DNA from: an uncultured Acidobacteriota bacterium
GTDB taxonomy: Bacteria; Acidobacteriota; Thermoanaerobaculia; UBA5066; Gp7-AA6
Direction of reading: 5' to 3'
NCBI GenBank assembly: GCA_963764715.1
Contig: CAVXTP010000022.1
Location: 1 to 64,000, forward strand
DNA length: 64,000 nucleotides
The notes beneath the pieces are model-generated. The model saw nothing but the letters and a program-made list of their open reading frames with translations, made no database searches and had not been told where the DNA came from. The position numbers were made by a program, and so were the translations under genes. Numbering within the stretch: the first letter of the stretch is position 1; each line of letters opens with the position of its first letter. Below, piece after piece: positions 40,744 to 56,564 of this stretch.

Positions 40744-40829
<86 letters not shown>

Positions 40830-42003: not shown

Positions 42004-42160
42004 CTGACCGTTCGGGAAACGCCATTTCCTCCGCGCGTTTCACACCGAAATAGTTTTCCAGTGCTTCGTTGACAATGTCGGCCAGATCTTTCCGCTCCTG
42101 CGCCGCGCGGATTTTTGCCGCCTCCCAGAGGTCATCCCGAAGCTTCAGGCTGGTCTTCAT
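41969..42160 (-). CDS. Ribbon-helix-helix regulator
   Basis: KTSLKL beta-strand followed by DDLWEAAKIRA and LADIVNEALENY helices. Confidence 0.75.
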   Translation of the reverse strand: MKTSLKLRDDLWEAAKIRAAQERKDLADIVNEALENYFGVKRAEEMAFPERSDGKKGGRRNAG

Positions 42161-42308
42161 CAGGAATCAGGATATCACAATATCTTGCCCTTGCTTGGGC
42201 GGCCTCGGGCCGCTCGCATTGCTCGACACGTAGTATGCTGCAACGGCATAAGGAATCACACCAAGGATGGAGGCCGAATGGTGGCAGTCAGGACGAAGCG
42301 ATGAAGCC

Positions 42309-42390
42309 GCCGCCTAACCTGCGGGTGCAGCGGACGCGTTCATCGCCTTCGACTCTTCACGCGCCGCTGACCCGCCACCCGTTAGGCGGC
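42309..42390 (+). repeat. attC-like site 1 (intact)
   Basis: GCCTAAC...GTTAGGC cores; L boxes GGTGCAGC / GCTGACC; two unpaired bases in the stem. Confidence 0.85.
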
Positions 42391-42410
42391 CGAAGACAGA
42401 AGGGAGCCTT

Positions 42411-43181
42411 GTGAAGGCGCTGCCAAGAGTTACCTGCTGGCTGTTTGCCTCGCTAGTCATGGCCACGTCAGCATGGCTGCGTGCTGATGAACGCCAGAGG
42501 CCGGCAGGTCGTCCGCTGAGTCAACGCAGCATCGTGACATGGCCGGCTGAATGGGGTGTTGACGAGCCAACGCTTTACCGCGTCTCCGCGATGGGATTCG
42601 CACCGCTATCCTCGACGCAGCAGTATGAGTCGGTGAATGGCGGCAAGAGATGCTTGGGCTCGACCTGCTCTTTCGGCTCTGCGCTTCCCCTTCCCTCCGG
42701 GGTTCTGATCACAGCGATCACCCTGGAAGCGTGCGACAGTGACACCACCAGCGTCGTGACACTGTCGCTGTACGAATGCGAGGGCGGTGCGTCGCCTGCC
42801 TGCACTCTGGTCGGTTCAGCCGACACTGGTATCCCGTACGAACTAGGCTGCGGGTACTACGGGGGAGATCCGCTGCCGTCACCGGTGACGGTTGAAAACA
42901 ACGCGATGACTTATTGGCTGGAAGCCCAGAGCAACGGCGCAAACGTCGAATTCAGGAGCGCAACAGTCTGGTACCAGCGGCAGGTCAGCCCGGCCCCGCT
43001 GGTAGCCACGTTTAATGACGTCCCAACAAGCCATCCACAGTTCCGGTTCATAGAGGCTCTCTCTCAATCGGGTATCACCGCAGGTTGCGGAGCAGGTAGT
43101 TTCTGTCCTGACGCAACAGTGACTCGAGCTCAACTAGCGGTCTTCCTGGCGAAGGCGCTGGGACTTCATTGGCCATTCTGA
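42411..43181 (+). CDS. Secreted protein with C-terminal SLH domain
   Basis: Signal peptide; FNDVPTSHP...GITAGCG..FCPDATVTRAQLAVFL. Confidence 0.85.
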   Translation: MKALPRVTCWLFASLVMATSAWLRADERQRPAGRPLSQRSIVTWPAEWGVDEPTLYRVSAMGFAPLSSTQQYESVNGGKRCLGSTCSFGSALPLPSGVLITAITLEACDSDTTSVVTLSLYECEGGASPACTLVGSADTGIPYELGCGYYGGDPLPSPVTVENNAMTYWLEAQSNGANVEFRSATVWYQRQVSPAPLVATFNDVPTSHPQFRFIEALSQSGITAGCGAGSFCPDATVTRAQLAVFLAKALGLHWPF

Positions 43182-43254
43182 CCAGCGATCCGATGTCCAG
43201 AGTTAGTGGTCTGGCTACCGAGACGGAAAGGACGATCCAGTCAACCGAAGGGCG

Positions 43255-43339
43255 GCCGCCTAACCCGCAGGTGCAGCGGACCCGCGTGGCTCGCTGCGCT
43301 CGCCCCGGCTCGCCGCTGACCCGCCACCCCTTGGGCGGC
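43255..43339 (+). repeat. attC-like site 2 (R' core mutated to CTTGGGC)
   Basis: GCCGCCTAAC-ccgca-GGTGCAGCGGAC...GCCGCTGACCCGCCACCC-CTTGGGCGGC. Confidence 0.8.
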
Positions 43340-46300
43340 CTTCGCAAGCTGGTAGGGCACGCTTCCACCCCGGCCCGGCGACTGTTCCTGGTTCCGGTGG
43401 TTCTTTGGGCCGTCTTTGTCGGCGGAGCGGAGGCCCGCGTTCAGATCCTCGAGCCTTCCATGAGCGCGGCCCAGACCTTCGAGGTCCTTCACGTGTTCAG
43501 CAACGCGCTGGGCGCTCCTTCGAGCACCTTGGTCGAAGCGGATGGGGGCCTTGTCTACGGCACTACCCAAACCGGCGGCGTCTTCGGACTCGGCTCGGTA
43601 TTCGCACTGGTGCCGCGCGAAACCGGGGGCTATGACTTCGTTGAATTGCACGCCTTTAGTGGCCCAGACGGTGCCAACCCGGAGGCCGGCGTGACCCGCG
43701 CTCCGGATGGAAGCCTTTGGGGTACCGCCGTCAACGGGGGAGCTCACGAGGCGGGCACAGTCTTCAGCATCACGCCGAAGGGCCACCTCACGGTGATGCA
43801 CCAATTCAGTGGCCCTGACGGAAAGTACCCCGTCGCGGGCCTGACTCCGACGCCTAACGGCTCCTTCCTCGGCGTCACGAGGGAGGTTGACGGAGGCGGA
43901 GGCAGCATTTTCAAGATCGGACTTGACGGTCACTTCGAGTCGCTACACTTCTTCGGCGGGTGGGACGGTATCTCGCCTGTCAGCACTCTGGTGAGAGCCA
44001 GCGACGGCGCCTACTACGGCACGGCAATGTACGGAGGCTACGACGGTACCGTCTTTCGGATAGACGAAGTCGGAAACTTCACACGGCTCCACACCTTCCA
44101 AGGCGACGGGATGACTCCCCGCGGGGGACTGGTGCAGGGAGCCGACGGGTATCTCTACGGTACGACGGTCGGAGGAGGTGCATCGCACTTCGGAGTCGTG
44201 TTTCGGATGGATTTCGGTGGGAACACGACGGTGATCCACGACTTCGATGGTGCTCTCGCGCTCAATCCCTTGACCGGCCTCGTCCAGGTCGCACCCAATG
44301 TGTTTCGCGGCATGACGGCGAGCGGCGGCACCGCGGGTCAGGGAGTGATCTTTCAGATCGAGCCGAATGGTGTCTTCACGATGCTCCACAGCTTCGATGG
44401 ATCGGATGGAGCGACCCCGTTGGGGGCGCTCAGCGTGCGAAGCGACGGAGCGCTCCTCGGGACTACCGCCGCAGGGGGAAGTCAAGGCCTGGGCACCGTC
44501 TTCCAACTGGACCCTGGAAACACGTTGTCGACGCTTTCCGATTTCCAGGCGGATATTTCCGGACCGTTCAGCGCGCTGGTTCAAGCCACGGACGGGAGCC
44601 TCTATGGGGCGACCGCATGGCGCGGAAACAAAGACTTCGGCAGCATTTTTCGATCCGATCTCAGCGGTGTGGTTTCGAGCGTGTACGGTTCGCCGACTCT
44701 GGGTATCGCGAGTTACAGCGGCTCGTTGATCCAGGCTTCGGATGAGCGTTTGTATGGCTCGAGTTACGACCCCAGCGGCAATACCGGTCGAATCTTCAGC
44801 GTCGGGCTGGATGGGGATTTTCGTCTGATGCGGACGCTCACCCCGGACGAGGGATTGGCACTGCTCGGCGGCCTGGCGGAAGGCGGAGACGGCTGGCTCT
44901 ACGGAACGGCGCGCTTCGGCGGATCTTCGGGGCTCGGCACGATTTTTCGAATCGACACGGACGCCAATTTCGAGTTACTGCACACGTTCACGGGCACCGA
45001 TGGCTCCGAGCCTTGCGCGGCTCCTATTCAGGCTGCCGACGGCAACCTGTACGGTACGACTTTCTCCGGAGGGAGCGAAGGAGGTGGCACGGCCTTTCGC
45101 GTCGACGCAGCCGGGAACGTCGGATCGATCCACTCCTTTGTTTACGACGAAGGGGTTCGACCCTCGGCGTCCTTCGCTCCAGCATCCGACGGCACATTGC
45201 TCGGCAGTGCGACGATCGGCGGCGCAAACACGGCCGGGACGCTGTTCAAGATGTCTCTGGAGGGCAACGTCACTCCGTTCCATGCGTTTGTCGTCGCCAC
45301 GGGCTGGACTCCCGACACCACACTTCTGGCAGCTGGTGATGGGAGCTTTTTCGGGACAACCCTCTACGGCGGCCAGGGAGAACCACCCTGGGGCCATGGC
45401 ACCGTTTTCCGCGTCGACCCGAACGGAAACGTGGAAACTGTGCATGAATTCACCGGCGGGCCCGGCGGCGGTTTCCCGTGCTGTGCGCTCACGCAGGCTA
45501 GTGACGGCAACTTCTACGGGGTCGCCGGCGAAGGAATCGGGAATCGCGGCGTCATCTACCGACTCCTCGCGAATCCTCCGGAGACCACGTTGGATTCGAT
45601 TTCCCCCAGCTCGGGTCGGGCTCAGGGAGGCACGTCGATCCAATTGGCGGGGATTCATTTTCGCCCCGGGATGCTCATCTCCATTGGTGACGCCCCCGCC
45701 ACCGGAATAGTCGAGGTCGACTATCGAGCGATTCGGTCGCTCAGTCCCATCCTCGTGCCTGGGAAACTCTACGACGTGGTCCTTTCGACATCCGACGGAG
45801 CCGAGCCAGCCACCCTGCCGGATGGCTGGTTTGCGGACTTCCTCGATGTACCATCGAGTCAACCGTTCCACGATGCGATCGAGGAGATAGTTCGGTCTGG
45901 ACTCACAGCGGGGTGCGGCAACGGTAACTATTGCCCGGACAGTCCCGTCACTCGCGCCCAGAGTGCGGTCTTCCTGCTGAAGGCCGCGCACGGCCCGGAC
46001 TACACGCCGCCAGCGTGCCAGGGGCTTTTCGGCGACGTGGCCTGTCCCTCGCAGTTTGCCGACTGGATCGAGCAGCTGGCTGCAGAGGGAATCACCGGAG
46101 GGTGCGGTGGAGCGAATTTCTGTCCTGCAAGCCTGGTAACCCGCGAACAGATTGCAGTGCTGCTCCTCAAAACGAAGCATGGACCGGATTACGAACCGCC
46201 AGTTTGTTCCGGAATCTTCACGGACGTTCAGTGCCCGAGCACATACGCAGCGTGGATCGAGGCTCTGTACGACGAGAACGTCACGGCCGGATGCTCCAGC

Positions 46301-46384
46301 GAGCCGCGAAACTACTGCCCGGGCGATTCCGTGAGTCGAGGCCAACACGCAGTATTTCTGAGCAACACGTTTAAATTGCAATAG
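43331..46384 (+). CDS. Large surface protein: tandem LYGTT..GG..G.VF beta repeats + IPT/TIG + three SLH domains
   Basis: Many DG.LYGTT..GG...GTVF...LH.F repeats; ISPSSG..GGT IPT-like segment; three SLH repeats; start codon ambiguous (frame open from 43169/43193). Confidence 0.85.
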   Translation: MGGLRKLVGHASTPARRLFLVPVVLWAVFVGGAEARVQILEPSMSAAQTFEVLHVFSNALGAPSSTLVEADGGLVYGTTQTGGVFGLGSVFALVPRETGGYDFVELHAFSGPDGANPEAGVTRAPDGSLWGTAVNGGAHEAGTVFSITPKGHLTVMHQFSGPDGKYPVAGLTPTPNGSFLGVTREVDGGGGSIFKIGLDGHFESLHFFGGWDGISPVSTLVRASDGAYYGTAMYGGYDGTVFRIDEVGNFTRLHTFQGDGMTPRGGLVQGADGYLYGTTVGGGASHFGVVFRMDFGGNTTVIHDFDGALALNPLTGLVQVAPNVFRGMTASGGTAGQGVIFQIEPNGVFTMLHSFDGSDGATPLGALSVRSDGALLGTTAAGGSQGLGTVFQLDPGNTLSTLSDFQADISGPFSALVQATDGSLYGATAWRGNKDFGSIFRSDLSGVVSSVYGSPTLGIASYSGSLIQASDERLYGSSYDPSGNTGRIFSVGLDGDFRLMRTLTPDEGLALLGGLAEGGDGWLYGTARFGGSSGLGTIFRIDTDANFELLHTFTGTDGSEPCAAPIQAADGNLYGTTFSGGSEGGGTAFRVDAAGNVGSIHSFVYDEGVRPSASFAPASDGTLLGSATIGGANTAGTLFKMSLEGNVTPFHAFVVATGWTPDTTLLAAGDGSFFGTTLYGGQGEPPWGHGTVFRVDPNGNVETVHEFTGGPGGGFPCCALTQASDGNFYGVAGEGIGNRGVIYRLLANPPETTLDSISPSSGRAQGGTSIQLAGIHFRPGMLISIGDAPATGIVEVDYRAIRSLSPILVPGKLYDVVLSTSDGAEPATLPDGWFADFLDVPSSQPFHDAIEEIVRSGLTAGCGNGNYCPDSPVTRAQSAVFLLKAAHGPDYTPPACQGLFGDVACPSQFADWIEQLAAEGITGGCGGANFCPASLVTREQIAVLLLKTKHGPDYEPPVCSGIFTDVQCPSTYAAWIEALYDENVTAGCSSEPRNYCPGDSVSRGQHAVFLSNTFKLQ

Positions 46385-46414
46385 CGCAATGACGAAGCTG
46401 CTGACTTCGCAGGA

Positions 46415-46447
46415 GGCTCGCCGCTGACCCGCCACCCGTTAGGCGGC
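46415..46447 (+). repeat. attC-like site 3 (right half only)
   Basis: GGCTCGCCGCTGACCCGCCACCCGTTAGGCGGC; left arm absent. Confidence 0.75.
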
Positions 46448-46459
46448 GCGATCAGGCTG

Positions 46460-47206
46460 TTGGGGCTACTCACCGCACTCATGCCAGCTGCCTCCGCGGC
46501 ATCTGCAGCTACCAGGCTGATTGTGTCCAACGACCCTTGCCTTGCATCGCTCTGTCCCGCAACGCGGCCACCGTGGCCCACCTGGGTCGAGGCGGGGTCG
46601 AGCTTTGCGCTCATTGTGTTGGCCGTCGACGACTTTGGAGTTCTTGACCCGTCCTACACGGGAACTGTGACGCTCTCCACCACCGATCCGCAAGCCACCT
46701 TGCCCCCGGACTACACGTTTACCCTTGCAGACTCTGGCAGAAAGATGCTCAACGGCGCGGTCTTGCGTAGCCCCGGGGCGCAGCGCGTGGCGGCTGCAGA
46801 TCTCTCCCTTGACGTGCTGCCGGGGAGTTTCGGATTGACCGTGTACCAAATCGGGTCGTGCATTCCTAGCGTAACAACCCTATGCCTTGCTCGGGGCCGG
46901 TTTCAGGTCGATGCCAGATGGCGGCGCTCAACCGAGCCTACAACTTCGACGGCGACCTCGGTGTCGCTCACATCGGATACCGGCTACTTCTGGTTCTTCA
47001 GCCCGAGTAACATCGAGGTTGTCGTCAAAGTCCTGAATGCTTGCTCTTTCGATGCCCACTGGTGGGTTTTCGCAGGAGGCTTGACCAGTGTTGAAGTGAC
47101 TCTCACGGTGGTTGATAGCGAGGCAGGAACAGTGAGGAGCTACACGAACCTGGCTGGCGGCGCATTTCAGCCGATTCAAGACACGGTAGCTTTTGATTGT
47201 CCTTGA
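46460..47206 (+). CDS. Secreted/surface protein
   Basis: Hydrophobic N-terminus; YTGTV..STTDP.ATLP.DYTF Ig-like segment; C-terminal LCL..GRF.V / TGYFWFF.PSN.EV.VKVLNAC domain. Confidence 0.75.
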   Translation: MGLLTALMPAASAASAATRLIVSNDPCLASLCPATRPPWPTWVEAGSSFALIVLAVDDFGVLDPSYTGTVTLSTTDPQATLPPDYTFTLADSGRKMLNGAVLRSPGAQRVAAADLSLDVLPGSFGLTVYQIGSCIPSVTTLCLARGRFQVDARWRRSTEPTTSTATSVSLTSDTGYFWFFSPSNIEVVVKVLNACSFDAHWWVFAGGLTSVEVTLTVVDSEAGTVRSYTNLAGGAFQPIQDTVAFDCP

Positions 47207-47254
47207 GGAGCAACCGGGCTTGCCGACGTGTGCTGCAGTGATTGCGACCATGAC

Positions 47255-47280
47255 GCCGCCTAACTCGCGGGTGCAGCGGA
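47255..47280 (+). repeat. attC-like site 4 (left half only)
   Basis: GCCGCCTAACTCGCGGGTGCAGCGGA; right arm lost next to the xis gene end. Confidence 0.7.
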
Positions 47281-47305
47281 TCTTCCCTTCGCTGGGGTCA
47301 CTCGG

Positions 47306-47794
47306 TTAGCGTTTCTCGCCACTTGCCGACGCGCCTGGCCCGGGATGTCCCAAGTCTGGGACCCGTCGCGCGCTCACGAATTCCGCCAGGTCGCCGGGCG
47401 AGAAGCGCAAGGTGTCGGCGCCGATCCTCACTGCGGTGATTCGGCGTTGGTGAACCAACCTGTAGATAGTCGGCAGGCTGACTCCCAGCCGTCGGGCGGC
47501 TCCCTTTGCGTCCAGGAGGTCAGTCTCAGGCGTAACGGCGGTGGTCGTTGCCGCCGCCAGCGATAGATTGCGAGCGGCCAGGGCCGCGCTTAGCCTGGCA
47601 GCCGCGCCCAGCAGGTCCAGACAGGCCTCGGCGCCCAATGAGGGAACGGCGGCCTCGATGTCGGCGAGGGCCTGCGCGGGGGACAATTGAGGGACAGCCG
47701 AGGGAAAGCCACTGGCCACACGCAACTTAGGGCGGCCCTGTCGGTGCGGCACCGATTGCTCCCTCGGTGGCTCGATCCGCTCCTTCCGGCTCAT
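47306..47794 (-). CDS. Excisionase-like HTH protein
   Basis: LLDAKGAARRLGVSLPTIYRLV...VRIG..LRF...DL; ATGA overlap with the upstream ORF. Confidence 0.8.
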   Translation of the reverse strand: MSRKERIEPPREQSVPHRQGRPKLRVASGFPSAVPQLSPAQALADIEAAVPSLGAEACLDLLGAAARLSAALAARNLSLAAATTTAVTPETDLLDAKGAARRLGVSLPTIYRLVHQRRITAVRIGADTLRFSPGDLAEFVSARRVPDLGHPGPGASASGEKR

Positions 47795-48117
47795 GCAGCC
47801 GGTCCCGTCCCGTTTGGGGCACGGCGACGGCCTTCCGCGAGCTGGCGGCGGTGGTCGGCGCAGCAGGACGGGCAGAGGTAGATCCGCTGCCCGTGACCGA
47901 GCTCGACCAGCATTGAGAGGCACCACGTCAGACACTGGCCGCACTGATTCTGTGTCGGGATGACGGTCGCTGACTCGGTACGCACGAGCGGGGCGGGGTA
48001 GCCGGTGAGGTCGGCAACTCGGGCCTGGTAGGCCGGAGCAGCCGGTTTCACGTCGGGGTTCACCGGTGGCCTGGGCTCTGCTCCGAGGGCGCGCCGGGCG
48101 ATCTTCAGGTAGTTCAC
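47791..48117 (-). CDS. Small hypothetical protein with CxxC motifs
   Basis: GGAG SD then GTG; NYLKIARRAL; CGQC and CPSC. Confidence 0.55.
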   Translation of the reverse strand: MNYLKIARRALGAEPRPPVNPDVKPAAPAYQARVADLTGYPAPLVRTESATVIPTQNQCGQCLTWCLSMLVELGHGQRIYLCPSCCADHRRQLAEGRRRAPNGTGPAA

Positions 48118-48136
48118 GGGCTGGACTCCGCGGGGT

Positions 48137-48213
48137 ACGAAATGAACGAAATCGACGAAGGACGGCCAATCCCAGCGAAGGCCGGACGCCCGGAATTCGT
48201 CGAATTCGTTTCG
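48137..48213. repeat. Iteron-like repeats (putative replication origin)
   Basis: ACGAA x3 at 9-bp period, then inverted TTCGT copies, directly after the primase-helicase stop. Confidence 0.6.
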
Positions 48214-48220
48214 GGACGCA

Positions 48221-50317
48221 TTACAGGGCAATCCACCGTTCCGCGGTTCGACTTCCGGACCCGGCAAGGACGGGCGTGGCGAGCCCCGCCGTTCTCAGCA
48301 ACTCGAGCGCCCGGTCGATTTCCTCGGCCGCGACGTTCCGCTGGAACAGGCCGGAGATGTCGGTGCGCGTCAACCCGTGCTCGGACCGGCGAAGGGCCGG
48401 AAGGATCTTGTCGGCCGTCGGGTCTCCCAGCGACTCCCCGAAGATGTGACGCGCGGAATCCTCCGCGTACGTCCAAACCGCCAGTGCTGCGAGGAGATGC
48501 TGCTCCCGGATCAGCTGCGAGCCGTCCAGGAGAGCGTAGAGAAGTGAGAGCCGGAGCACCTGGGCTTCCGCCCGGGAGGTGAGGGACCCGAACATTCCGA
48601 GGCGGTCTCTGGACAGGACCGGGTAGACGTCGTGCCACGCGCGGGTCGCTCTCTGGTCGCGCTCCACTTCGCGTAGCTGCCGGGCGGCCTCGAGAATGCG
48701 TGTTGTTTCCCGCGCCAGACGTTCGAGCTCCGGGGCCGGCGGAGACCCGCCGTCCGGAAGACACTTCGATCGGGCCACGGCTATCCAGAGGAAGCGGTTG
48801 CCGAACCCGTTGGCCGTTTCGGTGGTTCCGAGGTTTCGCAGGAGCTCCTGGCGAGTGATGTGGCCCAGGACGGATATGTGGGCGCCCGTGGCCACCTCGG
48901 GATTGTTCTTCGTGAGCACCCGAAGGTCGCCCGTGTCCCATGCCTGTCGGACGACGGCGGAGAGGATGTTCCCGTCACGTGCCATGACGCGAAGCGTCGA
49001 CGCGAACTCCGCCTCGATGACCATCAGGCGCTTGTCCTGGACGCCCTCGTCGACGCGGACCATCTGATAGTCGACCACTCGCCCCTTTTCCTTGACGGGC
49101 TCCTCCTCCATCCGCGCGTCACGAACGGCGTGGATCAGTCCCTCGCCGCTCGACAGGCCCGACTGGATCCGGTTGCTGGTCCAGTCCGTGTCGGCCGCGC
49201 GAAGGACGCGCCGAACATCGCTCTCCGCCGTCCCTTTCCGTCCCCGGGACGTGTTGCCGACGAGGACGCCGAACAAGTTGCAGCGGTGCTCGACCGCCCC
49301 GACGCGGCAGAACGGGCCCCGGCCGATCGCGTTGCCCGCCATGATGAGGAAGTGAACGAGTACGGCGGCGGGATCGGCTTCCGTGAAAGGCTCCACGGTC
49401 CGCACGACGTCCCCTGCCACGCCGTGGTAGGCGTCGTTGTCCAGGGGCTTCGGCCAGGCGGCAGTCGGGGAGCTGGGCACCGTGACGGTCGATTCGATGG
49501 CGGTGGAGACTCCCAGCCAGCGGAACGCGGTGTCGAGCACCACTTCCGGGAAGTAGTCGCGAAGCCGGCTCCCGCCGGTCGTCGGGTTGCCGGCGGCGAG
49601 TTGCTGCGCCGTGTCGCGCACGTCGCTCGCGACTTTGCGCCGGTCCGCGCCGACGGCCTCCGCCATAACGTCGAGGAACTCCGTGGTACGGACCTCCGAC
49701 CATCCGTGTCGAAGAAGGAACCCGGCGAGCGCGAGTGTTGCGTCGTGCCGCTGTCCGTCCTGCCAGAAGCGCGCGAGGAGTGCGCAGGCGGCGATTTGCG
49801 AGGCGACGTTACGAAGATCGGCCACAGCGATGTCGGCTAGGTCCCCGAGTTCCTCCCATTCGACCGTCTCGCCGGACGGGTGGGTGCTCGGCTCCGCCAA
49901 GGTCTGACAGCCGGAGCCACGAAGCTCGAGCAGCATCACCTTCTTCGAGCCCAGGCCGGCAGGCACCTCAAACGTCTCCCGGCGGATCTCGTCGCCGATG
50001 GCCCTGTAGTAGTGGTGGGAGGAGCGCTTGCCCTTGCGTCCGTGCCGCCATCCCGTGCGCGGTAGCCAGCGGCGCGCTGCGACCACTGCCTCTGGTGCGT
50101 CGAGGTCTACGTCGATCAGCCCGTTGGAAGCGGCTCCCGTGAGGATCCCGATGTTCGCGGCGGGGTCGAAAATCGAGTCCACCCGTTCTGGGGAAACCCG
50201 GAGATCCTGCCAACCCGAAAGGCGGGGGCCCTTCTCGCCCCGCGGGACTGGAACCGGGTAGATGCCCAGGTCGAGGTAGGCAAGGGCGGCGGCGCGGGTG
50301 TCGGAGTAGCTTCCCAT
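48221..50317 (-). CDS. Bifunctional primase/polymerase fused to a DUF3987-like helicase domain
   Basis: Prim-Pol motifs KGP..GWQ, NIGILTG, DVDLD, HHYY, PSTHPSG; P-loop-like GNTSRGRKGT, SSGEGLI and NGFGNRFL. Confidence 0.85.
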   Translation of the reverse strand: MGSYSDTRAAALAYLDLGIYPVPVPRGEKGPRLSGWQDLRVSPERVDSIFDPAANIGILTGAASNGLIDVDLDAPEAVVAARRWLPRTGWRHGRKGKRSSHHYYRAIGDEIRRETFEVPAGLGSKKVMLLELRGSGCQTLAEPSTHPSGETVEWEELGDLADIAVADLRNVASQIAACALLARFWQDGQRHDATLALAGFLLRHGWSEVRTTEFLDVMAEAVGADRRKVASDVRDTAQQLAAGNPTTGGSRLRDYFPEVVLDTAFRWLGVSTAIESTVTVPSSPTAAWPKPLDNDAYHGVAGDVVRTVEPFTEADPAAVLVHFLIMAGNAIGRGPFCRVGAVEHRCNLFGVLVGNTSRGRKGTAESDVRRVLRAADTDWTSNRIQSGLSSGEGLIHAVRDARMEEEPVKEKGRVVDYQMVRVDEGVQDKRLMVIEAEFASTLRVMARDGNILSAVVRQAWDTGDLRVLTKNNPEVATGAHISVLGHITRQELLRNLGTTETANGFGNRFLWIAVARSKCLPDGGSPPAPELERLARETTRILEAARQLREVERDQRATRAWHDVYPVLSRDRLGMFGSLTSRAEAQVLRLSLLYALLDGSQLIREQHLLAALAVWTYAEDSARHIFGESLGDPTADKILPALRRSEHGLTRTDISGLFQRNVAAEEIDRALELLRTAGLATPVLAGSGSRTAERWIAL

Positions 50318-50375
50318 GTTCGGGACCCATGATCGACGGCTACCCGAACAGAAGCGAGGGACACAATTCGGCGAA

Positions 50376-51143
50376 TTATGTCCGCCGTTTTTCGGGTCGC
50401 CCTGGCGAGGGCTCCCGACGCGTAGCGAGCCTGCCGATCCTGTCGATCTCGCGGATGGCGGCGGAGATGTCGGTCTGGGGCGTGCCCTTCTTGTACTCCA
50501 TGAACCAGAGCGCGGTTGCTTCGCGCGGCGATAAGCCCGCGCGGTACCGACCCGAGCGCAACCGAGACAGTGCTCGGGCAAGCCCGGGGACAAAGGCGGC
50601 CGGAACTTCGGGAACGCGCGAACCTGGCTGCTCGAGCGCTTTGGCAATCTCGCTGGGGCGGTTCAGTGTACGTGGGACCAACCGTCGCGCTTTCGCGAGC
50701 CAGTTCACCATCTCGCGGTAGAGCTTCCAGTCCTGAATGTCGCCGAGGTTTTGATACAGAGGCCTTTCGGGTCTTCCGGCACCCTTCTGCCGCATGGCGA
50801 TCAGGTCGCCGATATCGTCGATGATCTCGTCGCCTTCGTTGCGGACACCGATGTATCGAGTCATTCGCCAGAACCTTAACGACCAGATCAGCTTCGTGCA
50901 GTTGAGGGGGTCCGGCGTGTTCGTCACGTTCAGCATCGGAATCGCCGCCTGCAGCAACGCCAGGATCTCGGCGGGCGACATGATCGACTTTTTCACGGCG
51001 TCGGGTTGCTGTTCTCGCACCCACACCTCCGCATCGACCGCGTATCGCAGAGTTGCGACGGGATCAGGGCCCATCGTCTTCAACCGCTCGGCAAGAGCCA
51101 GGATCCTTTCGCGCTCCTCTACCGTAAGAGACGTTTCCGTCAT
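50376..51143 (-). CDS. Hypothetical protein
   Basis: 255-aa ORF with GGAGG/GAGG upstream, co-oriented with the replication module. Confidence 0.6.
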   Translation of the reverse strand: MTETSLTVEERERILALAERLKTMGPDPVATLRYAVDAEVWVREQQPDAVKKSIMSPAEILALLQAAIPMLNVTNTPDPLNCTKLIWSLRFWRMTRYIGVRNEGDEIIDDIGDLIAMRQKGAGRPERPLYQNLGDIQDWKLYREMVNWLAKARRLVPRTLNRPSEIAKALEQPGSRVPEVPAAFVPGLARALSRLRSGRYRAGLSPREATALWFMEYKKGTPQTDISAAIREIDRIGRLATRREPSPGRPEKRRT

Positions 51144-51273
51144 GCCTCGCGCCTCCGCCCCGCAACGAGTCAGGGCGGAAGCGTGCGAGGCGATCGCTTG
51201 TCGGCGAAGTGATCAGCTGCGCCTATCCGCCGATGCGATTATCCCTCTGGGATCCGAGAGTGGGGGTGGCAGC

Positions 51274-51402
51274 GACCGGACAGCACTGCAGCGGACTCGC
51301 GGCCTCGCGACTATAAGGCTGGTCGGGGTGCCGCAACCCGCCCGGCGGTTCAGACCCCTGTCCGGCGTCGGCTCGCCGCTGAACGGCTGCCCGTCAGGCG
51401 GC
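51274..51402 (+). repeat. attC-like site 5 (degenerate)
   Basis: CTGCAGCGGAC ... GGCTCGCCGCTGAACGGCTGCCC-GTCAGGCGGC. Confidence 0.6.
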
Positions 51403-51659
51403 CAAAGGTCATGACGTTCTCACGTCTCGAAGAAGACCTGGCAGGTGACTTTGCGAAGCTGGATCTCGGCCTCTGGGAGGTTTTCCAGTTTGGCGGCTGC
51501 ACTCACCGGGCCGGTGTTGGCGCTATCTAGTTGTCTCCAATTCGGCCGCGATAAGCACCTTATGGGCGAGCGAGTTGCGGTCCGAGCATGCAAACGCTCT
51601 AGCGTGGGCGAGCGTCCCATCGCTTAGAATAGGTGCCGTACACAACGTCGGAGGCCAGA

Positions 51660-52823
51660 ATGAGGCGGCTGCTGATCATCCCGGTTGCCCTCGTGGCAGT
51701 CTTGGCGGGAGGTGCCGTCCGCCAAGTCCAGGACGTGTGCGGACCGTTCGCTGACGTCTCACCCGCCCTTTGCCCATACGTCCTCGAGATGTACTACCTC
51801 GGCATCACCGCGGGCACTTCGCCGACGACTTACTCGCCCGACAACCCGGTGACGCGCGGACAAGCGGCCGTGTTCGTATCGAAGGGCGTCAATCAGGCGA
51901 TCGCTCGCTCCTCGCGGCGCGCGGCACTCGGGCAGTGGTGGACGACAATGCCGCAGTGGAACCTCGGGCTCGGCGTCACGGATACCGGCAACCTGCCCTA
52001 TCTCGTGGCCTCCGACGGGGCTGACGTCTGGGTGGCCAGTTCTGGCGCGGTCGCGCGCGTGAGAGCGAGCGACGGGCGGCTTCTTGAGTCTTGGACCGGC
52101 GCAACAAATGCCATCGGCGTTGCGGTCGCCATGGGCCGGGTCCTCGTCACCGGCGACTCGAACCCGGCGATCCGAAGCGGGGCGGATACGGGTGTTCTCT
52201 ACCTGATCGACCCGTCTCAGCCCGCCGGCCCGGTCACCGTTGCCGCGAGCGGACTCGGAACCGGAACGCATGGCGTTGCGTTCGACGGATCCCGGGTGTG
52301 GACCACGAACCACGGGAGCGTTTCGATCGTCACGCCGCTTCCTTTTCTCCCCTGGTCTTCGACGAGCGTCACCGAAGGGTTCACGCAGCCTCTCGGAATC
52401 GTGTGGGACGGTTCGCACATGTGGGTCGGCGACCTTATCTCGGGAGACGTCCTTCGCCTCGATTCCAACGGAGCGATCCTCCAGCGGGTGCACACGGGCA
52501 CTCCGGGATTCATGACTTTCGACGGCGCGAATATCTGGGTTCCCGCGGTGACGTCCGTCTCGGTTATCCGTGTTACGGACGGCGCGATCGTCGGCACGCT
52601 CACCGGTAACGGACTCGACAACGCATACGCCGCCGCCTTCGACGGGGAGCGCGTCCTCGTGACGAACCCCCAAGCGGGCACTCTCTCGCTTTTCCGCGCC
52701 GCGGACCTGGCGCCACTCGGTTCGGTGTCGGCAGGAGCGGGCACGGACCCGACAGGGATCTGCAGCGACGGACTGAACTTCTGGATTACGTTGCGGTCGA
52801 CCGGCAAGTTGGCCCGGTTCTGA
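51660..52823 (+). CDS. SLH domain + YncE-like beta-propeller protein (paralog A)
   Basis: GGAGG SD; signal peptide; FADV...GITAGTSPTTYSPDNPVTRGQAAVF; repeated FDG..WV blades. Confidence 0.85.
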   Translation: MRRLLIIPVALVAVLAGGAVRQVQDVCGPFADVSPALCPYVLEMYYLGITAGTSPTTYSPDNPVTRGQAAVFVSKGVNQAIARSSRRAALGQWWTTMPQWNLGLGVTDTGNLPYLVASDGADVWVASSGAVARVRASDGRLLESWTGATNAIGVAVAMGRVLVTGDSNPAIRSGADTGVLYLIDPSQPAGPVTVAASGLGTGTHGVAFDGSRVWTTNHGSVSIVTPLPFLPWSSTSVTEGFTQPLGIVWDGSHMWVGDLISGDVLRLDSNGAILQRVHTGTPGFMTFDGANIWVPAVTSVSVIRVTDGAIVGTLTGNGLDNAYAAAFDGERVLVTNPQAGTLSLFRAADLAPLGSVSAGAGTDPTGICSDGLNFWITLRSTGKLARF

Positions 52824-52829
52824 GTGGAC

Positions 52830-53978
52830 ATGCGTCGACTTCGATTCGCCGCGATTGCTCTGGCCACGGCCCTCGCCGGAGCCGCCACTGGAGTCGTTCA
52901 GGACCAATGCGGTCCCTTCACGGACGTCTCGGCGTCGCTCTGTCCGTTCGTCCTCGAGATGTACGTTCTCGGGATCACCGCCGGGACCTCGCCGACGACG
53001 TACTCCCCGAGCGCGCCTCTGACGCGCGGCCAGGCGGCGGTCTTCGTCTCGAGGGCCGTGAACCAGTCGATCGCGCGGTCGTCCGATCGCGCCGCCCGAG
53101 GACAGTGGTGGAATCCGACTCCGCTCACGCTGCTCGCCAGAACCAACGTGGGATCAAACCCTTTCGGCGTTGCATCCGACGGTTCGGACGTCTGGGTCAC
53201 GAACCACTTCGGAGCAGGCATCGCCGATGTCTCCCGCGTACGTGCGAGCGACGGCCGACTGCTCGAGACCTGGAGCGGAGCGCACGGCGCGTATGCGATC
53301 GCGATCGGCTTGGGACGCGTCGTCGCAACGAGTCAGCGCGGGTTCGGAAACCCTCACCAGCTCTATGCCATTGACCCTGCGGACCCGTCCCTCCAGGCGA
53401 AGGTCGTCGTGCCGAGTTTCCCAAACGACGGGATCGACATCCTCTTCGACGGCGGCCGATTTTGGGTGCGGTCGACCATCTCGGAGCTCCACATAGTCAC
53501 ACCGACCGGCCGTTCGACCTGGGACTACACGACGGTCACGGGATTCGATTCCCTGAGCGGAATGTTCTTCGACGGCCGAAACGTCTGGGTTGTCGAGGTC
53601 GGGGGCGTCAACGGCTGGCTCCTCAGGCTTGGTCCCGCGGGCGAGATCCTGCAGCGCTTCTCGATCGGCAAGAACACCGGTTACCCGGCCTTCGACGGCG
53701 AGAACATCTGGATCCCGAATACTCAGGACCACACGATCTCGGTCGTCCGCGCCTCGACCGGCAAGGAGATCGCGCTTCTCGAAACGGACCTGAACCCCTA
53801 CATGGCAGCGTTCGACGGCGAGCGCATGGCGATTCTCCAGGGTCTCAATGTCACCGTGTGGCGGGCCGCCGATCTGAAGAGAATCGGAAGCGCTCCGGCC
53901 CGCGGCGTCCAGATCTGCAGCGGCGGCGGGCGGTTCTGGGTCTCCGACAATACGTTCGATCAGGTCGTCGGTTTCTGA
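52830..53978 (+). CDS. SLH domain + YncE-like beta-propeller protein (paralog B)
   Basis: Near-identical SLH segment and RVRASDGRLLE motif to paralog A; FDG..W repeats. Confidence 0.85.
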   Translation: MRRLRFAAIALATALAGAATGVVQDQCGPFTDVSASLCPFVLEMYVLGITAGTSPTTYSPSAPLTRGQAAVFVSRAVNQSIARSSDRAARGQWWNPTPLTLLARTNVGSNPFGVASDGSDVWVTNHFGAGIADVSRVRASDGRLLETWSGAHGAYAIAIGLGRVVATSQRGFGNPHQLYAIDPADPSLQAKVVVPSFPNDGIDILFDGGRFWVRSTISELHIVTPTGRSTWDYTTVTGFDSLSGMFFDGRNVWVVEVGGVNGWLLRLGPAGEILQRFSIGKNTGYPAFDGENIWIPNTQDHTISVVRASTGKEIALLETDLNPYMAAFDGERMAILQGLNVTVWRAADLKRIGSAPARGVQICSGGGRFWVSDNTFDQVVGF

Positions 53979-54071
53979 TAACTAGTATTCGCGCTCCTCC
54001 GGTTGACCGGCGGCCTGTTACAGATGCAATGAGTACAGAGTTGCGTCAGAACCTCGGTGACAATTTGACGG

Positions 54072-54100
54072 CGCCGCCGTCTCGCCACCCATTAGGCGGC
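54072..54100 (+). repeat. attC-like site 6 (internally deleted remnant)
   Basis: GCCGCC...CGCCACCC-ATTAGGCGGC. Confidence 0.55.
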
Positions 54101-54123: not shown

Positions 54124-54249
54124 ATGCTACGCCTCGTCCTTTCGGTCTGTCTCTTCGGCGCGGGACTGCTCTGGCTTGTGACGATCGGTGTCTTGCCAAA
54201 CGAACTCCGAGCCTTCTCTACCGAAGTCACCGAACGGCTTGAACGCTAA
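54124..54249 (+). pseudogene. Short signal-peptide-like ORF, possible truncated cassette gene
   Basis: MLRLVLSVCLFGAGLLWLVTIG..., 41 aa, starting 24 bp after attC-like site 6. Confidence 0.3.
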
Positions 54250-55207
54250 TGTCCAATGCCGCCGGGGGGCCACAAGTGCCGAGGCGATATGCCTGCAGAC
54301 GCTGTAGCTCGTGGAGAGTCCGGAGCAAGGAGCGCTCGAGGGTAGTTTCATAGCGGACGACCTTGTCCAGTACATCCTGTGGGGGGAGGGTGTTCTCGAG
54401 TTTCGCCTGCTCCTTAGCTCGCTTCGCCGCCTGGACGGCGACCCGGGCGCGCGCGCAATCCTCGGACGCCCGTTCGCTCATTCGAATCGAGAGACTCTCT
54501 GGGGAGATGCCGACCTTGGCAGAGTAGGCCGCGCAGGCCCTCCTGAGAAGTCCTGGGGTCCACCGTTCGAACGCGTCGAATTCGTCATCTTCGTCCGGGA
54601 TGCCGGGCACCGATACCTCGACGTCCCGGGTGACGAACGCGGCCTTGTACGCCAGCCAGAGGAAGACCACGGCGGCGTTTTTCTCCATGGCCTCATCGTC
54701 TCCGAGCTGTTCAAAGTGATCGACCAGATCGAGCACCGCCTCGGCGTGCTCCAGAGAGGCTGTTGCCTCCTCCAAGTCTGTCGACGAGAATCCGGGTCGT
54801 CCCGCCGGTAGCAACCCGAGCTTTGCCAGAGACTGGTTGCTCTCGATGGCGCTGGTCTCGTACCTGACGACACGACCCAGGCGCCACAGCTGGATGGCAA
54901 TCCTTTCCGTGAGGGCAGCCTCCAGTTCATTAACCGGGGAAGTGCTACTGAATATCGACGCCCGATGGTCTTCCCAAAGCTGGGCGTCCTCCATGCCAGT
55001 GACTACAGGCCGAACGCTCAGAATCCCATGCCGCAGTGCGTTGGCAGACGAGCGCCGTTTCCCCGGTTCAGTTTTGGGGCCACCGCGGCTGGGCCGGTCG
55101 GTGGACTTCCCCTGTCCCTCGGTTGTCCCACTTCCCTCGTTGTCTGGTGTGATCTCTGGGGTCGATCCACCGGCAGAATCCGTGATTTCTTGGTCCTTGT
55201 TACTCAT
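54227..55207 (-). CDS. Conserved hypothetical protein with GPKT..GK..SS.NAL.HG motif
   Basis: GGPKTEPGKRRSSANALRHGI, WRLGRVVRYE and RYETTLERSL..TLHEL segments. Confidence 0.7.
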   Translation of the reverse strand: MSNKDQEITDSAGGSTPEITPDNEGSGTTEGQGKSTDRPSRGGPKTEPGKRRSSANALRHGILSVRPVVTGMEDAQLWEDHRASIFSSTSPVNELEAALTERIAIQLWRLGRVVRYETSAIESNQSLAKLGLLPAGRPGFSSTDLEEATASLEHAEAVLDLVDHFEQLGDDEAMEKNAAVVFLWLAYKAAFVTRDVEVSVPGIPDEDDEFDAFERWTPGLLRRACAAYSAKVGISPESLSIRMSERASEDCARARVAVQAAKRAKEQAKLENTLPPQDVLDKVVRYETTLERSLLRTLHELQRLQAYRLGTCGPPAALDISVQAVR

Positions 55208-55234
55208 TGGATGTCCCTGAACCCCTTCAGAAAA

Positions 55235-55291
<57 letters not shown>

Positions 55292-56415: not shown

Positions 56416-56428
56416 TGCGCGCCGTTCT

Positions 56429-56455
56429 GAGTGGTCGGAGGTTCAAACCCTCTCG
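56429..56455 (+). repeat. Degenerate third copy of the tRNA-Pro 3' att sequence
   Basis: GAGTGGTCGGAGGTTCAAACCCTCTCG, 26 of 27 identical to the tRNA T-arm region. Confidence 0.8.
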
Positions 56456-56564
56456 AAAGTTCGATGTCCCTGCTGCCGATACCGAGGGGCCTCGTTCCTC
56501 AACGTTCACAGTCGCGCTCGGACGGCCTGGACAGGCTCATCCGGATTCGAGCAGCCGACGGTCG

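Follow-up and report, generated by a model that had tools for sequence, protein, structure and literature searches.

Clusters of attC sites lacking an integron integrase were defined as CALINs by Cury et al. 2016 (PMC4889954), where insertion at secondary sites is given as one possible origin. A preprint (10.1101/2022.09.11.507474) describes the insertion of cassettes by IntI at genomic 5'-GWT-3' sites, and proposes that small CALINs may arise in this way and that the inserted cassettes may be 'domesticated' via attC loss. Ghaly et al. 2021 (PMC8352920) list an attC model for Acidobacteria. The DNA analysed here, a window of 64,000 nucleotides from an uncultured Acidobacteriota bacterium (GCA_963764715.1, contig CAVXTP010000022.1; unprefixed coordinates refer to the window), carries two small cassette clusters that are similar to CALINs in having at least two attC sites with cassettes, no nearby intI and an integron elsewhere in the genome. 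They also share with CALINs and SALIN/attG insertions the secondary-site insertion proposed as their origin, and fixation through attC loss is already part of the preprint. Unlike described CALINs, they lie inside a tRNA-integrating element and are split in two by its replication genes, and their sites are mostly half-sites that published detection criteria would probably miss.

The attC sites resemble those of sedentary chromosomal integrons, such as Vibrio with its VCRs and Xanthomonas, in their homogeneous fixed length (82 nt), their large array, a family common to the genus and compensatory changes in the variable loop stem. The difference is that the window sites lie outside the main array and that the intI of this genome is frameshifted and co-oriented with the array cassettes. 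Mobile integrons ride on transposons, plasmids, ICEs and phages, and the window cassettes are likewise carried by another mobile element; this element, however, carries no integron integrase or attI, and the cassettes are therefore regarded as passive cargo. The element itself is like other tRNA-integrated islands: the tRNA 3' end is duplicated, the integrase adjoins the tRNA, there is a regulator as well as an excisionase-like HTH protein and a primase-helicase, the GC content is lower than in the host, and in a relative the same tRNA bears tandem arrays. About half of this element, however, consists of integron cassettes with attC relics. Our literature search found no paper on integron cassettes with attC relics in tRNA-integrated elements.

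The attC family and its main array

A sequence-only reading of the window had described six co-oriented attC-like sites, and their coordinates were borne out; all six lie on the + strand and belong to one 82-nt attC family. The comparison with genomic copies, which that reading had proposed, located the same family in an array of about 41 sites that is spread over contigs C17 and C15 and adjoins an integron-integrase gene. When both arms of site 1 were scanned over the whole 4.36-Mb genome with up to 6 mismatches, the right arm gave 43 matches (27 on C15, 11 on C17, 5 in the window) and the left arm 46 (27, 11 and 3, with 5 elsewhere). Those five carried 6 mismatches each, and at 5 or fewer mismatches the arms were confined to C15 and C17 (27+11) and the window. 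A covariance model, R1, was built from 34 of 35 full array sites, the 94-nt site C15:207771-207864 being excluded; over the whole genome at E <=1 it gave 45 matches, 41 on C15/C17, three in the window and one weak match (E 0.17) on C21. Compensatory changes were found at 7 of the 23 pairs modelled in the array alignment, and the variable loop stem carries such changes. The array sites have a regular length of 82 nt and a single orientation, and lie at gene ends. The family is present in 39 of the 44 genomes of the genus, with up to 99 matches in one relative, and in another relative (G006) an intact IntI (434 bits) stands beside at least 41 R1 sites scoring 80-101 bits. Because this genome and its relatives have the family in a dense array next to an IntI-type gene, the repeats are, to judge from this setting, genuine sites of integron recombination, and only one of them is unbroken.

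The only intI of the genome was recovered as TIGR02249 pieces of 190, 35 and 137 bits at C17:9551-10538, adjoining the first array site (8794-8875), and it is split over three reading frames (frame path 2-3-2-1-3). The breakage could in principle be an assembly error, yet long ORFs elsewhere in the window are intact, and judged from its frames the gene is a pseudogene. In the main array decay grows with distance from intI (Spearman rho -0.62 over 41 sites), and of the 8 right arms farthest from it, 3 have GTC cores.

Preservation and decay of the window sites

Site 1 (42309..42390, + strand), which had been called canonical, is an intact 82-nt attC that scores 92.1 bits with R1 and is identical at 80 of 82 positions to the array site C17:7770-7851. 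Its bottom strand folds as DNA at -31.7 kcal/mol (z -5.5), and two array sites gave z of -5.7 and -4.3. Bottom-strand folding, suggested as a check in the sequence-only reading, singled out site 1 as the only window site that folds like an array attC; sites 2-6 gave z of -0.7 to +1.0, with site 2 at +0.97 (no better than shuffled), site 3 at -0.27 and site 4 at -0.10, and folding of site 5 gave no hairpin. Site 1 is thus the sole window site that looks recombination-competent on its sequence.

Site 2 (43255..43339, +; R1 53.4 bits) is a full-length attC with four substitutions including GTT to CTT. Its closest relative is an intact array site of another genome (G015), to which it is identical at 81 of 85 positions; the differences lie in L'' (one), at the start of the loop region (one) and in R' (two), and three are in paired arms. 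Site 3 (46397..46447, +; 14.5 bits) consists of the right half only, as had been described, with loop-right, L' and an R' that keeps GTT; the right arm is identical at 29/29, and AT-rich sequence takes the place of the left arm directly after the stop codon of cassette gene c2. Site 4 (47255..47311, +; 12.9 bits) had been said to keep only the left arm. The left arm is indeed there (24/26), but so are the loop region, whose loop-right GTCACTCG matches the array variant C17:7301-7382, and an R'-like GTTAGCG at 47305-47311, which follows after a clean 17-nt loss of L' and the spacer. Site 5 (51287..51402, +; 17.5-25.3 bits) is a relic with a GTC core, a right arm of 24/29, an over-long middle and no remaining R''; it begins with an exact 14-nt L''/loop piece (51287-51300), the only zero-mismatch match in the window. 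Site 6 (54010..54100, +) is heavily mutated with an ATT core. Over its length of about 91 nt the right arm (54072-54100, 25/29) can be recognised and the left arm barely so. The internal deletion ascribed to this site thus fell away, and its whole-site alignment score was 45.5 against a null of 31.7 +/- 7.4. The core changes of sites 2, 5 and 6 were as originally read, but with the corrected descriptions of sites 4-6 the GTT core is mutated in three of the five damaged sites and not in four.

Scoring with R1 in the window, run with filters off, clearly recovered sites 1 and 2 only; unrelated places in the window reach 15-19 bits, sites 3-6 lie at background, and site 6 was absent from the 98 matches at E <=10. 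The identification of sites 3-6 therefore rests on half-site identity, and the fact that the covariance model alone does not separate them from background counts against the explanation preferred below. A seventh relic, which had been overlooked together with the island setting, is an isolated R' tail, J_L (CTTGGGCGGCCT, 42194..42205, +), identical at 12/12 to R' of site 2.

The tRNA-Pro element and the cluster borders

The attC sites lie inside a 14.5-kb integrative element at tRNA-Pro, in two clusters. The target, tRNA-Pro(cgg) (40744..40820, +), was identified by ARAGORN and by Rfam (65.6 bits). The borders of the island are exact 57-nt direct repeats (family D3, 100% identity): attL (40773..40829, +) is the 3' part of tRNA-Pro plus 9 nt, and attR (55235..55291, +), an exact copy of the tRNA-Pro 3' end, matches the ends of tRNA-Pro in G006 and G055 with 100% identity as well. 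Next to attL is a tyrosine integrase of 390 aa (40831..42003, -; Pfam Phage_integrase 6e-14, phrog_1 integrase 9e-37), to which TIGR02249 gave no match at E <=0.01; by its family matches it is a generic integrase and not an integron integrase. Its relatives, 73-77% identical, adjoin tRNA-Pro in G006 and G055. Upstream of the integrase gene is a gene for an Arc-like ribbon-helix-helix protein of 63 aa (41969..42160, -; phrog_6506 Arc-like repressor 1.3e-6, weak Pfam RHH).

The other backbone genes, all likewise on the - strand, encode a protein with a C-terminal excisionase-type HTH_17 domain (47306..48169; Pfam 2e-8, phrog_66 excisionase/regulator), a Prim-Pol primase-helicase (48221..50317; Pfam Prim-Pol 9e-18, PHROG primase/helicase), orfU (50376..51143, 255 aa) and orfR (54227..55264). 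The primase-helicase frame is open up to 50647; its first 110 residues, however, do not look coding, and alignments to relatives begin only at residue 112. Family searches gave no match for orfU (including PHROG) or for orfR (including Pfam and PHROG); orfR is unique in the genome, and its listed start overlaps attR. By its GC at the three codon positions (0.62/0.49/0.76) orfU was judged real, and an antisense ORF at 50794-51414 (0.54/0.62/0.75) spurious. The backbone genes, the HTH_17 gene included, have no paralogues in the genome. Outside this genome, the primase-helicase was found in 1 of 43 genomes of the genus and the HTH protein in 1 of 400 genomes of the phylum. G006 has a related HTH gene and integrase together within 1 kb, uninterrupted by cassettes, and in G054 a distance of 1.4 kb separates the same tRNA-Pro from the gene found after attR in the window. 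A cassette-free relative with the same backbone was not found in searches of genus and phylum genomes, and the empty insertion site is therefore reconstructed and not observed.

Clusters A (about 42195-47305) and B (about 51287-54100) are antisense to the backbone and occupy its intergenic gaps. The motif TTRGGCGGC has 8 matches in the window against 1.45 expected, seven of them in known sites and the eighth in J_L, and the exact 12-mer of J_L is present only at 42194 and 43330. Similarity to attC begins in J_L at the crossover TT and none was detected to its left, and J_L is taken as the putative left junction of cluster A. The putative right junction is G47305|TTA47306-8, whose TTA, read on the opposite strand, is the HTH gene's stop codon. 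At J_L the crossover is preceded by C and not by the G of the published GWT consensus, which distinguishes J_L from SALIN/attG insertions and counts against entry at a secondary site. Cluster B has no R'-type left junction, and its left border cuts the L'' box of site 5.

Origin and fixation of the clusters

Most probably, attC sites of a genus-wide integron family form CALIN-type cassette clusters inside a tRNA-Pro element, where they are now fixed cargo. An integron integrase of the same lineage or of a congeneric host would have delivered the cassettes into the element, for cluster A at a secondary site lying between the stop codon of the HTH gene and the start of the repressor gene, and later cassettes would have joined at the integrase-proximal end. 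The hairpins would then have decayed via arm substitutions and one-arm deletions, with the cassette ORFs remaining open. With site 1 alone looking recombination-competent and the genome's own intI apparently a pseudogene, the cassettes appear fixed with respect to the integron; being inside the tRNA-Pro integrative element, they may still be mobile as its cargo, its integrase presumably recognising the 57-nt att repeat instead of attC. The clusters may thus illustrate a route out of the integron to fixed cargo of another mobile element.

Several observations sit uneasily with delivery by IntI. A border inside an L'' box is a product that an IntI reaction would not give, half-sites such as 3 and 4 are not IntI products and need extra deletion events, and the 12-nt identity between J_L and R' of site 2 also counts against the preferred explanation. 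Pieces of the array might instead have reached the island by hairpin breakage and end joining, or by homologous or illegitimate recombination, a possibility that we regard as unlikely though worth keeping in mind. The start of cluster B and the C at position -1 of J_L would fit it, as would the right-then-left order around c3, which is preceded by the right-arm-only site 3 and followed by site 4 with its left arm first. The same order is found in G055, where a right-arm-only piece (L040:7619-7591), a small ORF and a left-arm-only piece (7241-7216) follow each other and both arms are of the rare GCGCGT/ACGCGC subtype. Site 4, however, retains the loop and loop-right and was not simply cut at the loop, and cluster A starts exactly at the R' TT and ends exactly at G|TT, which would be rare for random breaks.

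The sequence-only reading had held that the cassettes were locked in place after capture. In the sense of being effectively immobile for an integron integrase this stands; locking as a selected or directed outcome is unsupported, since similar decay, including the GTC change, is seen at the distal end of the main array. That selection favoured mutations killing the crossover core, and so prevented the excision of useful cassettes, is improbable in our view. The ORFs are open while the sites are damaged, GTT is changed in sites 2, 5 and 6 whose right arms are otherwise 27/29, 24/29 and 25/29 identical, and two of the four changes of site 2 fall in the 7-nt R' core (hypergeometric p ~0.03). But these statistics on the GTT core are post hoc and weak, GTT is kept in sites 3 and 4, and with intI already broken there would be nothing to select against. 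It is far less probable still that the island's own tyrosine recombinase uses the attC sites, which would make the block an integron-like platform built on a non-IntI integrase. The integrase (-) and the cassettes (+) point away from each other like those of a classical integron, 300 nt apart, and integrase relatives in G055 and G045 are likewise found within 3 kb of attC-family sites; the best match of the island integrase is nevertheless the general phage integrase family and not the integron-integrase model, the borders of the element are repeats derived from a tRNA, as is typical for tRNA-targeting integrases, an attC-family site is absent at 7 of 9 other loci with integrase relatives, and the integron attI region showed no similarity to the sequence left of J_L (local score 16, shuffle mean 14.2). 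That the family is a dispersed REP/MITE-type repeat without relation to integrons, which had been named as the refuting scenario, can be rejected almost outright: only the form of a GC-rich imperfect palindrome speaks for it, whereas the family is restricted to the island and one array adjoining an IntI-type gene, its sites are of regular length, at gene ends and in one orientation, and the arrangement recurs beside the intact IntI of G006.

Cassette genes

The cassette ORFs are all open although the sites are damaged, and a co-oriented site lies directly past the 3' end of c1, c2, c3 and c6. The GC content of cluster A (0.621) and cluster B (0.643) is near that of the array (0.629), while the island backbone has 0.676 and the genome about 0.70. 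The first gene, c1 (42411..43181, +), encodes a small exported protein with a C-terminal SLH domain (Pfam 1.9e-9), and has distant paralogues in two main-array cassettes, C15:203880-204587 (E 6e-38) and C15:217920-218672 (4e-31). A large surface protein with GloVer repeats (TIGR03803, 519 bits), a TIG domain and an SLH anchor (both Pfam) is encoded by c2 (43400..46384, +; start approximate), which has a signal-peptide-like start after site 2 and chromosomal paralogues of 35-40% identity. No match was found for c3 (46460..47206, +) in Pfam, NCBIfam, PHROG or PADLOC; the genome has 7 paralogous matches to the C-terminal domain of the c3 product. In cluster B, c5 (51633-52823, +) and c6 (52824-53978, +) are tandem paralogues with 45% mutual identity, each with an N-terminal SLH domain (Pfam), and a tandem pair at C6:290495-292779 is 43-56% identical to them.

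Class of the locus

The six attC-like repeats of the window (sites 1-6, 42309-54100) form a CALIN-type cluster of the attC family of the genus's sedentary integrons, carried in an integrative element at a tRNA-Pro gene. Sites 1 and 2 are model-detectable and stand 865 nt apart, in agreement with the CALIN definition of at least two attC within 4 kb with IntI, the integron integrase, absent nearby. The sole recombinase near the sites is not IntI, the intI gene of the genome lies on another contig, and the window does not hold the combination of IntI-specific domain and attI beside cassettes that defines a complete integron. An attI-like site left of J_L, the isolated R' tail at 42194-42205, was considered and dropped because the sequence there is not similar to the attI region of the integron. 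By every feature tested in the sequence the locus fits the attC and CALIN kinds, and recombination of site 1 by IntI is predicted. CALINs, cassettes on mobile elements and attC loss are already known ideas; the available text of PMC4889954 names secondary-site insertion as one CALIN origin, and the accessible part of the preprint 10.1101/2022.09.11.507474 reports experimental insertion of cassettes by the integrase at attG sites, 5'-GWT-3'. Our literature search returned no account of small primase elements that integrate at tRNA genes and carry attC cassettes.

The attC family and the main cassette array

The whole genome (G000, with the window at C22:1-64000; 4.36 Mb, 26 contigs, about 70% GC) was scanned with fuzzy patterns of the two arms of site 1, allowing at most six mismatches. 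The right arm gave 43 matches (27 on contig C15, 11 on C17 and five in the window) and the left arm 46 (27, 11 and three in the same places, and five elsewhere, all with six mismatches), so the attC repeat is present far beyond chance and is not dispersed. R1, a covariance model built from the array sites, gave 45 matches at E<=1 across the genome: 41 on C15/C17, three in the window (42309, 43255 and 51272-51402) and one weak match on C21. A dispersed REP/MITE had been named in the sequence-only reading as the rival identity of these repeats. The many copies over unrelated intergenic regions expected of such an element were found neither by the arm scan nor by R1 anywhere in the genome, the family being confined, apart from weak matches, to the C15/C17 array and the window, and this explanation was rejected.

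The arms on C17 and C15 pair into 35 full sites on a single strand, 32 of them exactly 82 nt long and spaced 385-2554 nt apart (median near 660). The array is cut by the start of C17 and by the end of C15, so the two contigs probably carry one array. The 41 R1 matches cover C17:599-8875 and C15:201589-225688 and adjoin the pieces of intI, where the IntI model TIGR02249 matches in three parts (190, 35 and 137 bits; C17:9551-10538) beside the first array site at C17:8794-8875. The alignment and R1 were built from 34 of the 35 full sites, the 94-nt site at C15:207771-207864 being left out. The consensus hairpin has a 6-bp R box, 2- and 5-nt unpaired spacers, a 12-bp L box with one extra base and a variable terminal stem, and compensatory changes occur at 7 of its 23 pairs in the 34 aligned sites. 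The attC family is present in 39 of 44 genus genomes and in all 20 high-quality ones; in the relative G006 at least 41 sites (80-101 bits) adjoin an intact IntI, and IntI above the family cut-off was found in 24 of 41 related genomes, a tally that takes in the unpublished genome G030. An Acidobacteria-specific attC model is listed in the accessible part of Ghaly et al. 2021 (PMC8352920), which indicates that integrons were already known in the phylum.

Some further features of the large sedentary chromosomal integron of G000 (loci L009-L011; C17:1-10600 and C15:201000-225692) were also observed. On C17, intI and the cassettes share one direction of transcription, and at C17:9339 the junction of attI with the first cassette reads GCGAGC G/TTAGGCGGC ATG, the slash marking the junction. 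One array site (C17:6306-6351, 45 bits) is collapsed internally to 46 nt with overlapping arms, an in-array example of the hairpin deletions found in the window. The site at C15:203327-203407 pairs R'' CCTGAC with R' GTCAGG, so that the canonical AAC/GTT triplet is altered in a compensated way; this site might be a functional GTC variant and not a product of decay.

State of the sites in the window

All six sites proposed in the sequence-only reading were recovered between 42309 and 54100, each on the plus strand. R1, used in place of the published attC model and run on the window with filters off, scored sites 1 to 5 at 92.1, 53.4, 14.5, 12.9 and 17.5 bits (25.3 for site 5 in the genome-wide run), and site 6 fell below its listing. 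Unrelated places in the window reach 15-19 bits, and sites 3-6 are therefore identified by half-site identity and not by R1. The Rfam scan of the window reported no attC family and only three tRNAs.

Site 1 has the canonical anatomy that had been claimed for it, with R'' GCCTAAC at 42312-42318 and R' GTTAGGC at 42381-42387, and folding of its bottom strand gave a hairpin of -31.7 kcal/mol with a z score of -5.5, as compared to -5.7 and -4.3 for two array sites. In this fold the unpaired spacers are 5 and 2 nt long and the 3' arm carries two bulged bases (C and T), matching the array sites; bulged bases on this arm are the canonical attC arrangement. Site 1 is identical to the array site C17:7770-7851 at 80 of 82 positions, the differences lying in the spacer and loop region, and this identity is well inside the spread of the array itself (mean 72.8 of 82). 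The 11 nt ahead of site 1 (42298-42308, GCGATGAAGCC) are found again in the relatives G023 and G056, ahead of array sites that share its loop subtype; the first 8 of these 11 nt are the reverse complement of TTCATCGC in the loop stem, and an alternative pairing is possible.

The complete R''/R' core is kept by site 1, and none of sites 2-6 has it in full. The changed triplets read beforehand were all seen, namely CTT in site 2, GTC in site 5 and ATT in site 6; R'' is lost in sites 3 and 5, and R' of site 4 is GTTAGCG. Sites 2-6 also lack the hairpin: shuffled sequence folds as well as site 2 does, and sites 3-6 all fail to fold on the bottom strand. Site 2 is identical at 81 of 85 positions to an intact array site of the relative G015. 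Two of its four changes fall in R', which becomes CTTGGGC, and the other two lie one each in L'' and at the start of the loop region. Site 3 keeps its right half as described (loop-right, L' and R', 29 of 29 identical), with the left arm replaced by AT-rich sequence directly after the c2 stop codon. The description of site 4 as only a left arm holds for the arm itself and is incomplete beyond it, since the loop and the loop-right in the variant GTCACTCG, which also occurs in C17:7301-7382, are kept as well; exactly 17 nt (L' and spacer) are missing, followed by GTTAGCG. Site 5 keeps an exact 14-nt L''/loop piece at 51287-51300, which is the sole perfect match in the window. Between this piece and the right arm, which has the GTC core, the middle is over-long. 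Site 6 has a right arm of 25 of 29 identical positions and a barely recognisable left part.

The motif TTRGGCGGC occurs eight times in the window against 1.45 expected; seven copies lie in known sites and the eighth is at 42195-42203. With its flanks this copy is identical to R' of site 2 at 12 of 12 positions, and to judge by its sequence it is a seventh attC relic (J_L). Sequence comparison found no attC similarity left of J_L.

The tRNA-Pro integrative element

One end of the element is tRNA-Pro(cgg) at 40744-40820, whose last 48 nt together with 9 further nt are repeated exactly at 55235-55291. The tRNA gene, the second copy of its 3' part at the far end and the neighbouring tyrosine integrase make up the structure of a tRNA-integrated element. 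The span between the 57-nt repeats is 14.46 kb with a GC content of 0.64 versus about 0.70 outside, and its deviating composition and variable presence are those of a genomic island. The integrase (40831-42003, minus strand) is a generic tyrosine integrase by Pfam Phage_integrase and phrog_1, and it gave no TIGR02249 match at E<=0.01; close relatives occur in 2 of 43 other genus genomes. The other backbone genes, likewise on the minus strand, encode an Arc-like ribbon-helix-helix protein, an HTH_17-domain protein of excisionase type (47306-48169) and a Prim-Pol primase-helicase, which probably starts near 50317; two further backbone ORFs on that strand have no assigned function. Each backbone gene is unique in the G000 genome and rare among relatives. 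The integrase ORF is intact and the two repeats are identical, and the element may be mobile.

In G006 and G055, integrases of 73-77% identity adjoin the same tRNA-Pro. An AlkZ-like glycosylase gene lies to the right of attR, the distal 57-nt repeat, and in G054 the tRNA-Pro is 1.4 kb from the AlkZ-like gene. This gene adjoins tRNA-Asp, tRNA-Ala or tRNA-Pro in relatives and may therefore be an old tRNA-linked cargo gene itself. At its 3' end, at 56417-56473, the tRNA-Pro T-arm region occurs a third time in degenerate form (27 nt, 96% identical). Locus L035 of G006 (C1, 7814-13941) is a tandem array of islands at the same tRNA, in which three tRNA-Pro att repeats accompany one full integrase and two fragmentary ones; an SLH gene with a very decayed attC-like tail follows.

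Cassette clusters and their genes

The sites and the cassette genes, which are on the plus strand, lie in two clusters kept apart by the HTH and primase-helicase genes. Cluster A runs J_L, site 1, c1, site 2, c2, site 3, c3 and site 4, and cluster B site 5, c5, c6 and site 6; c1, c2 and c3 are each followed by the next site, and c5-c6 by site 6, as in cassettes. The GC contents of clusters A and B (0.621 and 0.643) are similar to that of the main array (0.629) and not to those of the backbone (0.676) or the genome. All cassette ORFs are open. The c1 product is a small SLH-anchored protein of a family also found in two main-array cassettes, c2 encodes a surface protein with GloVer repeats, TIG and SLH, c5 and c6 are tandem paralogues bearing SLH, and c3 has no assigned function. 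The only defence-system content found was a weak mads_1 HTH match.

The ORF at 50794-51414 was rejected as the cassette gene of site 5, being judged spurious by its codon-position GC and its overlap with orfU, an island ORF without assigned function. An ancestral SLH cassette shared with the tRNA-Pro islands of G006 and G055 was likewise rejected, the N-terminal domains being at most 25% identical to c1. The idea that cassettes c0 or c1 occur in other genomes was dropped too, since the only matches of 42195-43339 there were to attC sites and to the part that encodes SLH. The starts of c2 and c3 are alike over the first approximately 20 nt after attC (43330-43360 and 46438-46466; 81% over 52 nt including the right arm). 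The C-terminal domain of c3 may be common cargo of islands, since genes that encode it were found in L042 (G055:C2) and L044 (G047:C16), where more distant integrase relatives lie 3-4 kb away.

Route of entry and locking of the cassettes

Cluster A ends on the right between G at 47305 and TTA, the stop codon of the HTH gene. On the left it ends with TT of J_L, and the Arc-like gene starts 34 nt away from there. Removal of the cluster would leave a compact HTH/Arc-like/integrase operon, and in G006 a related HTH gene and integrase are found within about 1 kb and are not separated by cassettes. By analogy, these borders are the signature expected of integrase-mediated secondary-site insertion. 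The base left of the crossover is C at J_L and site 2, versus G in all 34 aligned array sites, so that the block 42195-43329 is flanked by identical 12-mers; it looks like the footprint of a two-cassette circle, integrated or excisable through that core. Cluster B has no R'-type left junction, and its border cuts the L'' box of site 5. The one-arm sites are not integrase products and need deletions, which fits the remark, in the accessible text of the preprint 10.1101/2022.09.11.507474, that replication slippage readily removes attC hairpins. For sites 3 and 4, opening of a cassette circle at the hairpin loop was weighed as an explanation and set aside because site 4 keeps its loop and loop-right. 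A cassette-free relative of the backbone was not found in genus, phylum, genome, viral or metagenome contig searches. For the primase-helicase locus, genome and viral contigs gave nothing, and seven metagenome loci share part of the primase-helicase and no other backbone gene. The sole genus relative of this protein (G047, 52% identity) lies in a different gene order with no attC-family site, and the HTH protein had a partial match in one of 400 other phylum genomes.

The proposal that the cassettes were locked in place after capture stands as a description, because only site 1 is foldable and intI is split. The single intI of the genome needs the frame path 2-3-2-1-3 to match an intact relative, implying at least four frameshifts, and no other IntI was found in the 96.8%-complete assembly. 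Locking by selection is not shown, since the main array decays alike. Its site quality falls with distance from intI (Spearman rho -0.62, p 1.7e-5, 41 sites), the median R1 score dropping from 103 bits over the first 28 sites to 82 bits over the last 13; the GTC core recurs in three of the eight most distal right arms, and the crossover core shows a marginal, post hoc excess of changes. The alignment scores of sites 1-6 in the window (125.5, 113.5, 70.5, 65, 65 and 45.5) would be the age series expected if new cassettes entered integrase-proximally, and the overall monotony of this gradient may be partly luck, given two separate clusters.

Cassettes outside arrays in relatives

Among nine other loci with relatives of the island integrase, two (G055:C3 and G045:C6) have attC-family sites nearby and the other seven have none. 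G055 repeats the one-arm pattern of the window, a truncated integrase being accompanied there by an SLH gene, a right-arm-only site, a small ORF and then a left-arm-only site. G051 (three sites) and G054 (two sites) also have small attC clusters far from their main arrays; the sites in these loci, L038 (G051:C2, 10356-11275) and L039 (G054:C2, 10658-11320), are intact, and the 20 kb examined around them contained no tRNA, IntI or island integrase.

How cassettes depart and spread from large sedentary integrons is a practical question. One tentative, rather doubtful idea is that cassettes repeatedly leave the sedentary integrons of the genus by way of tRNA-Pro elements with this family of integrase. 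The integron integrase would drop cassettes into intergenic gaps of the element, loss of one hairpin arm would turn an IntI-mobile cassette into fixed cargo, and the element would then carry it between genomes. The attC relics beside integrase relatives in G055 and G045, a possible further relic in G006, and the best match of site 2 to an array site of another genome hint at this route. Laboratory work in the preprint 10.1101/2022.09.11.507474, in its accessible part, describes genomic secondary-site insertion and proposes fixation by attC loss. The present element is a natural example of the stages in one place, from an intact site through four point changes and one-arm deletions to near-erased relics, and its cassettes ride a second kind of mobile element and could move without any integron integrase. 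As four of the six sites score no higher than background, integron finders that rely on models will undercount clusters of this kind.

A further observation was made in L040 (G055:C3, 7241-6803, minus strand), where L'' of the left-arm-only relic supplies the ATG of an ORF with a lipoprotein-type signal peptide, an attC arm thus being reused as a gene start.
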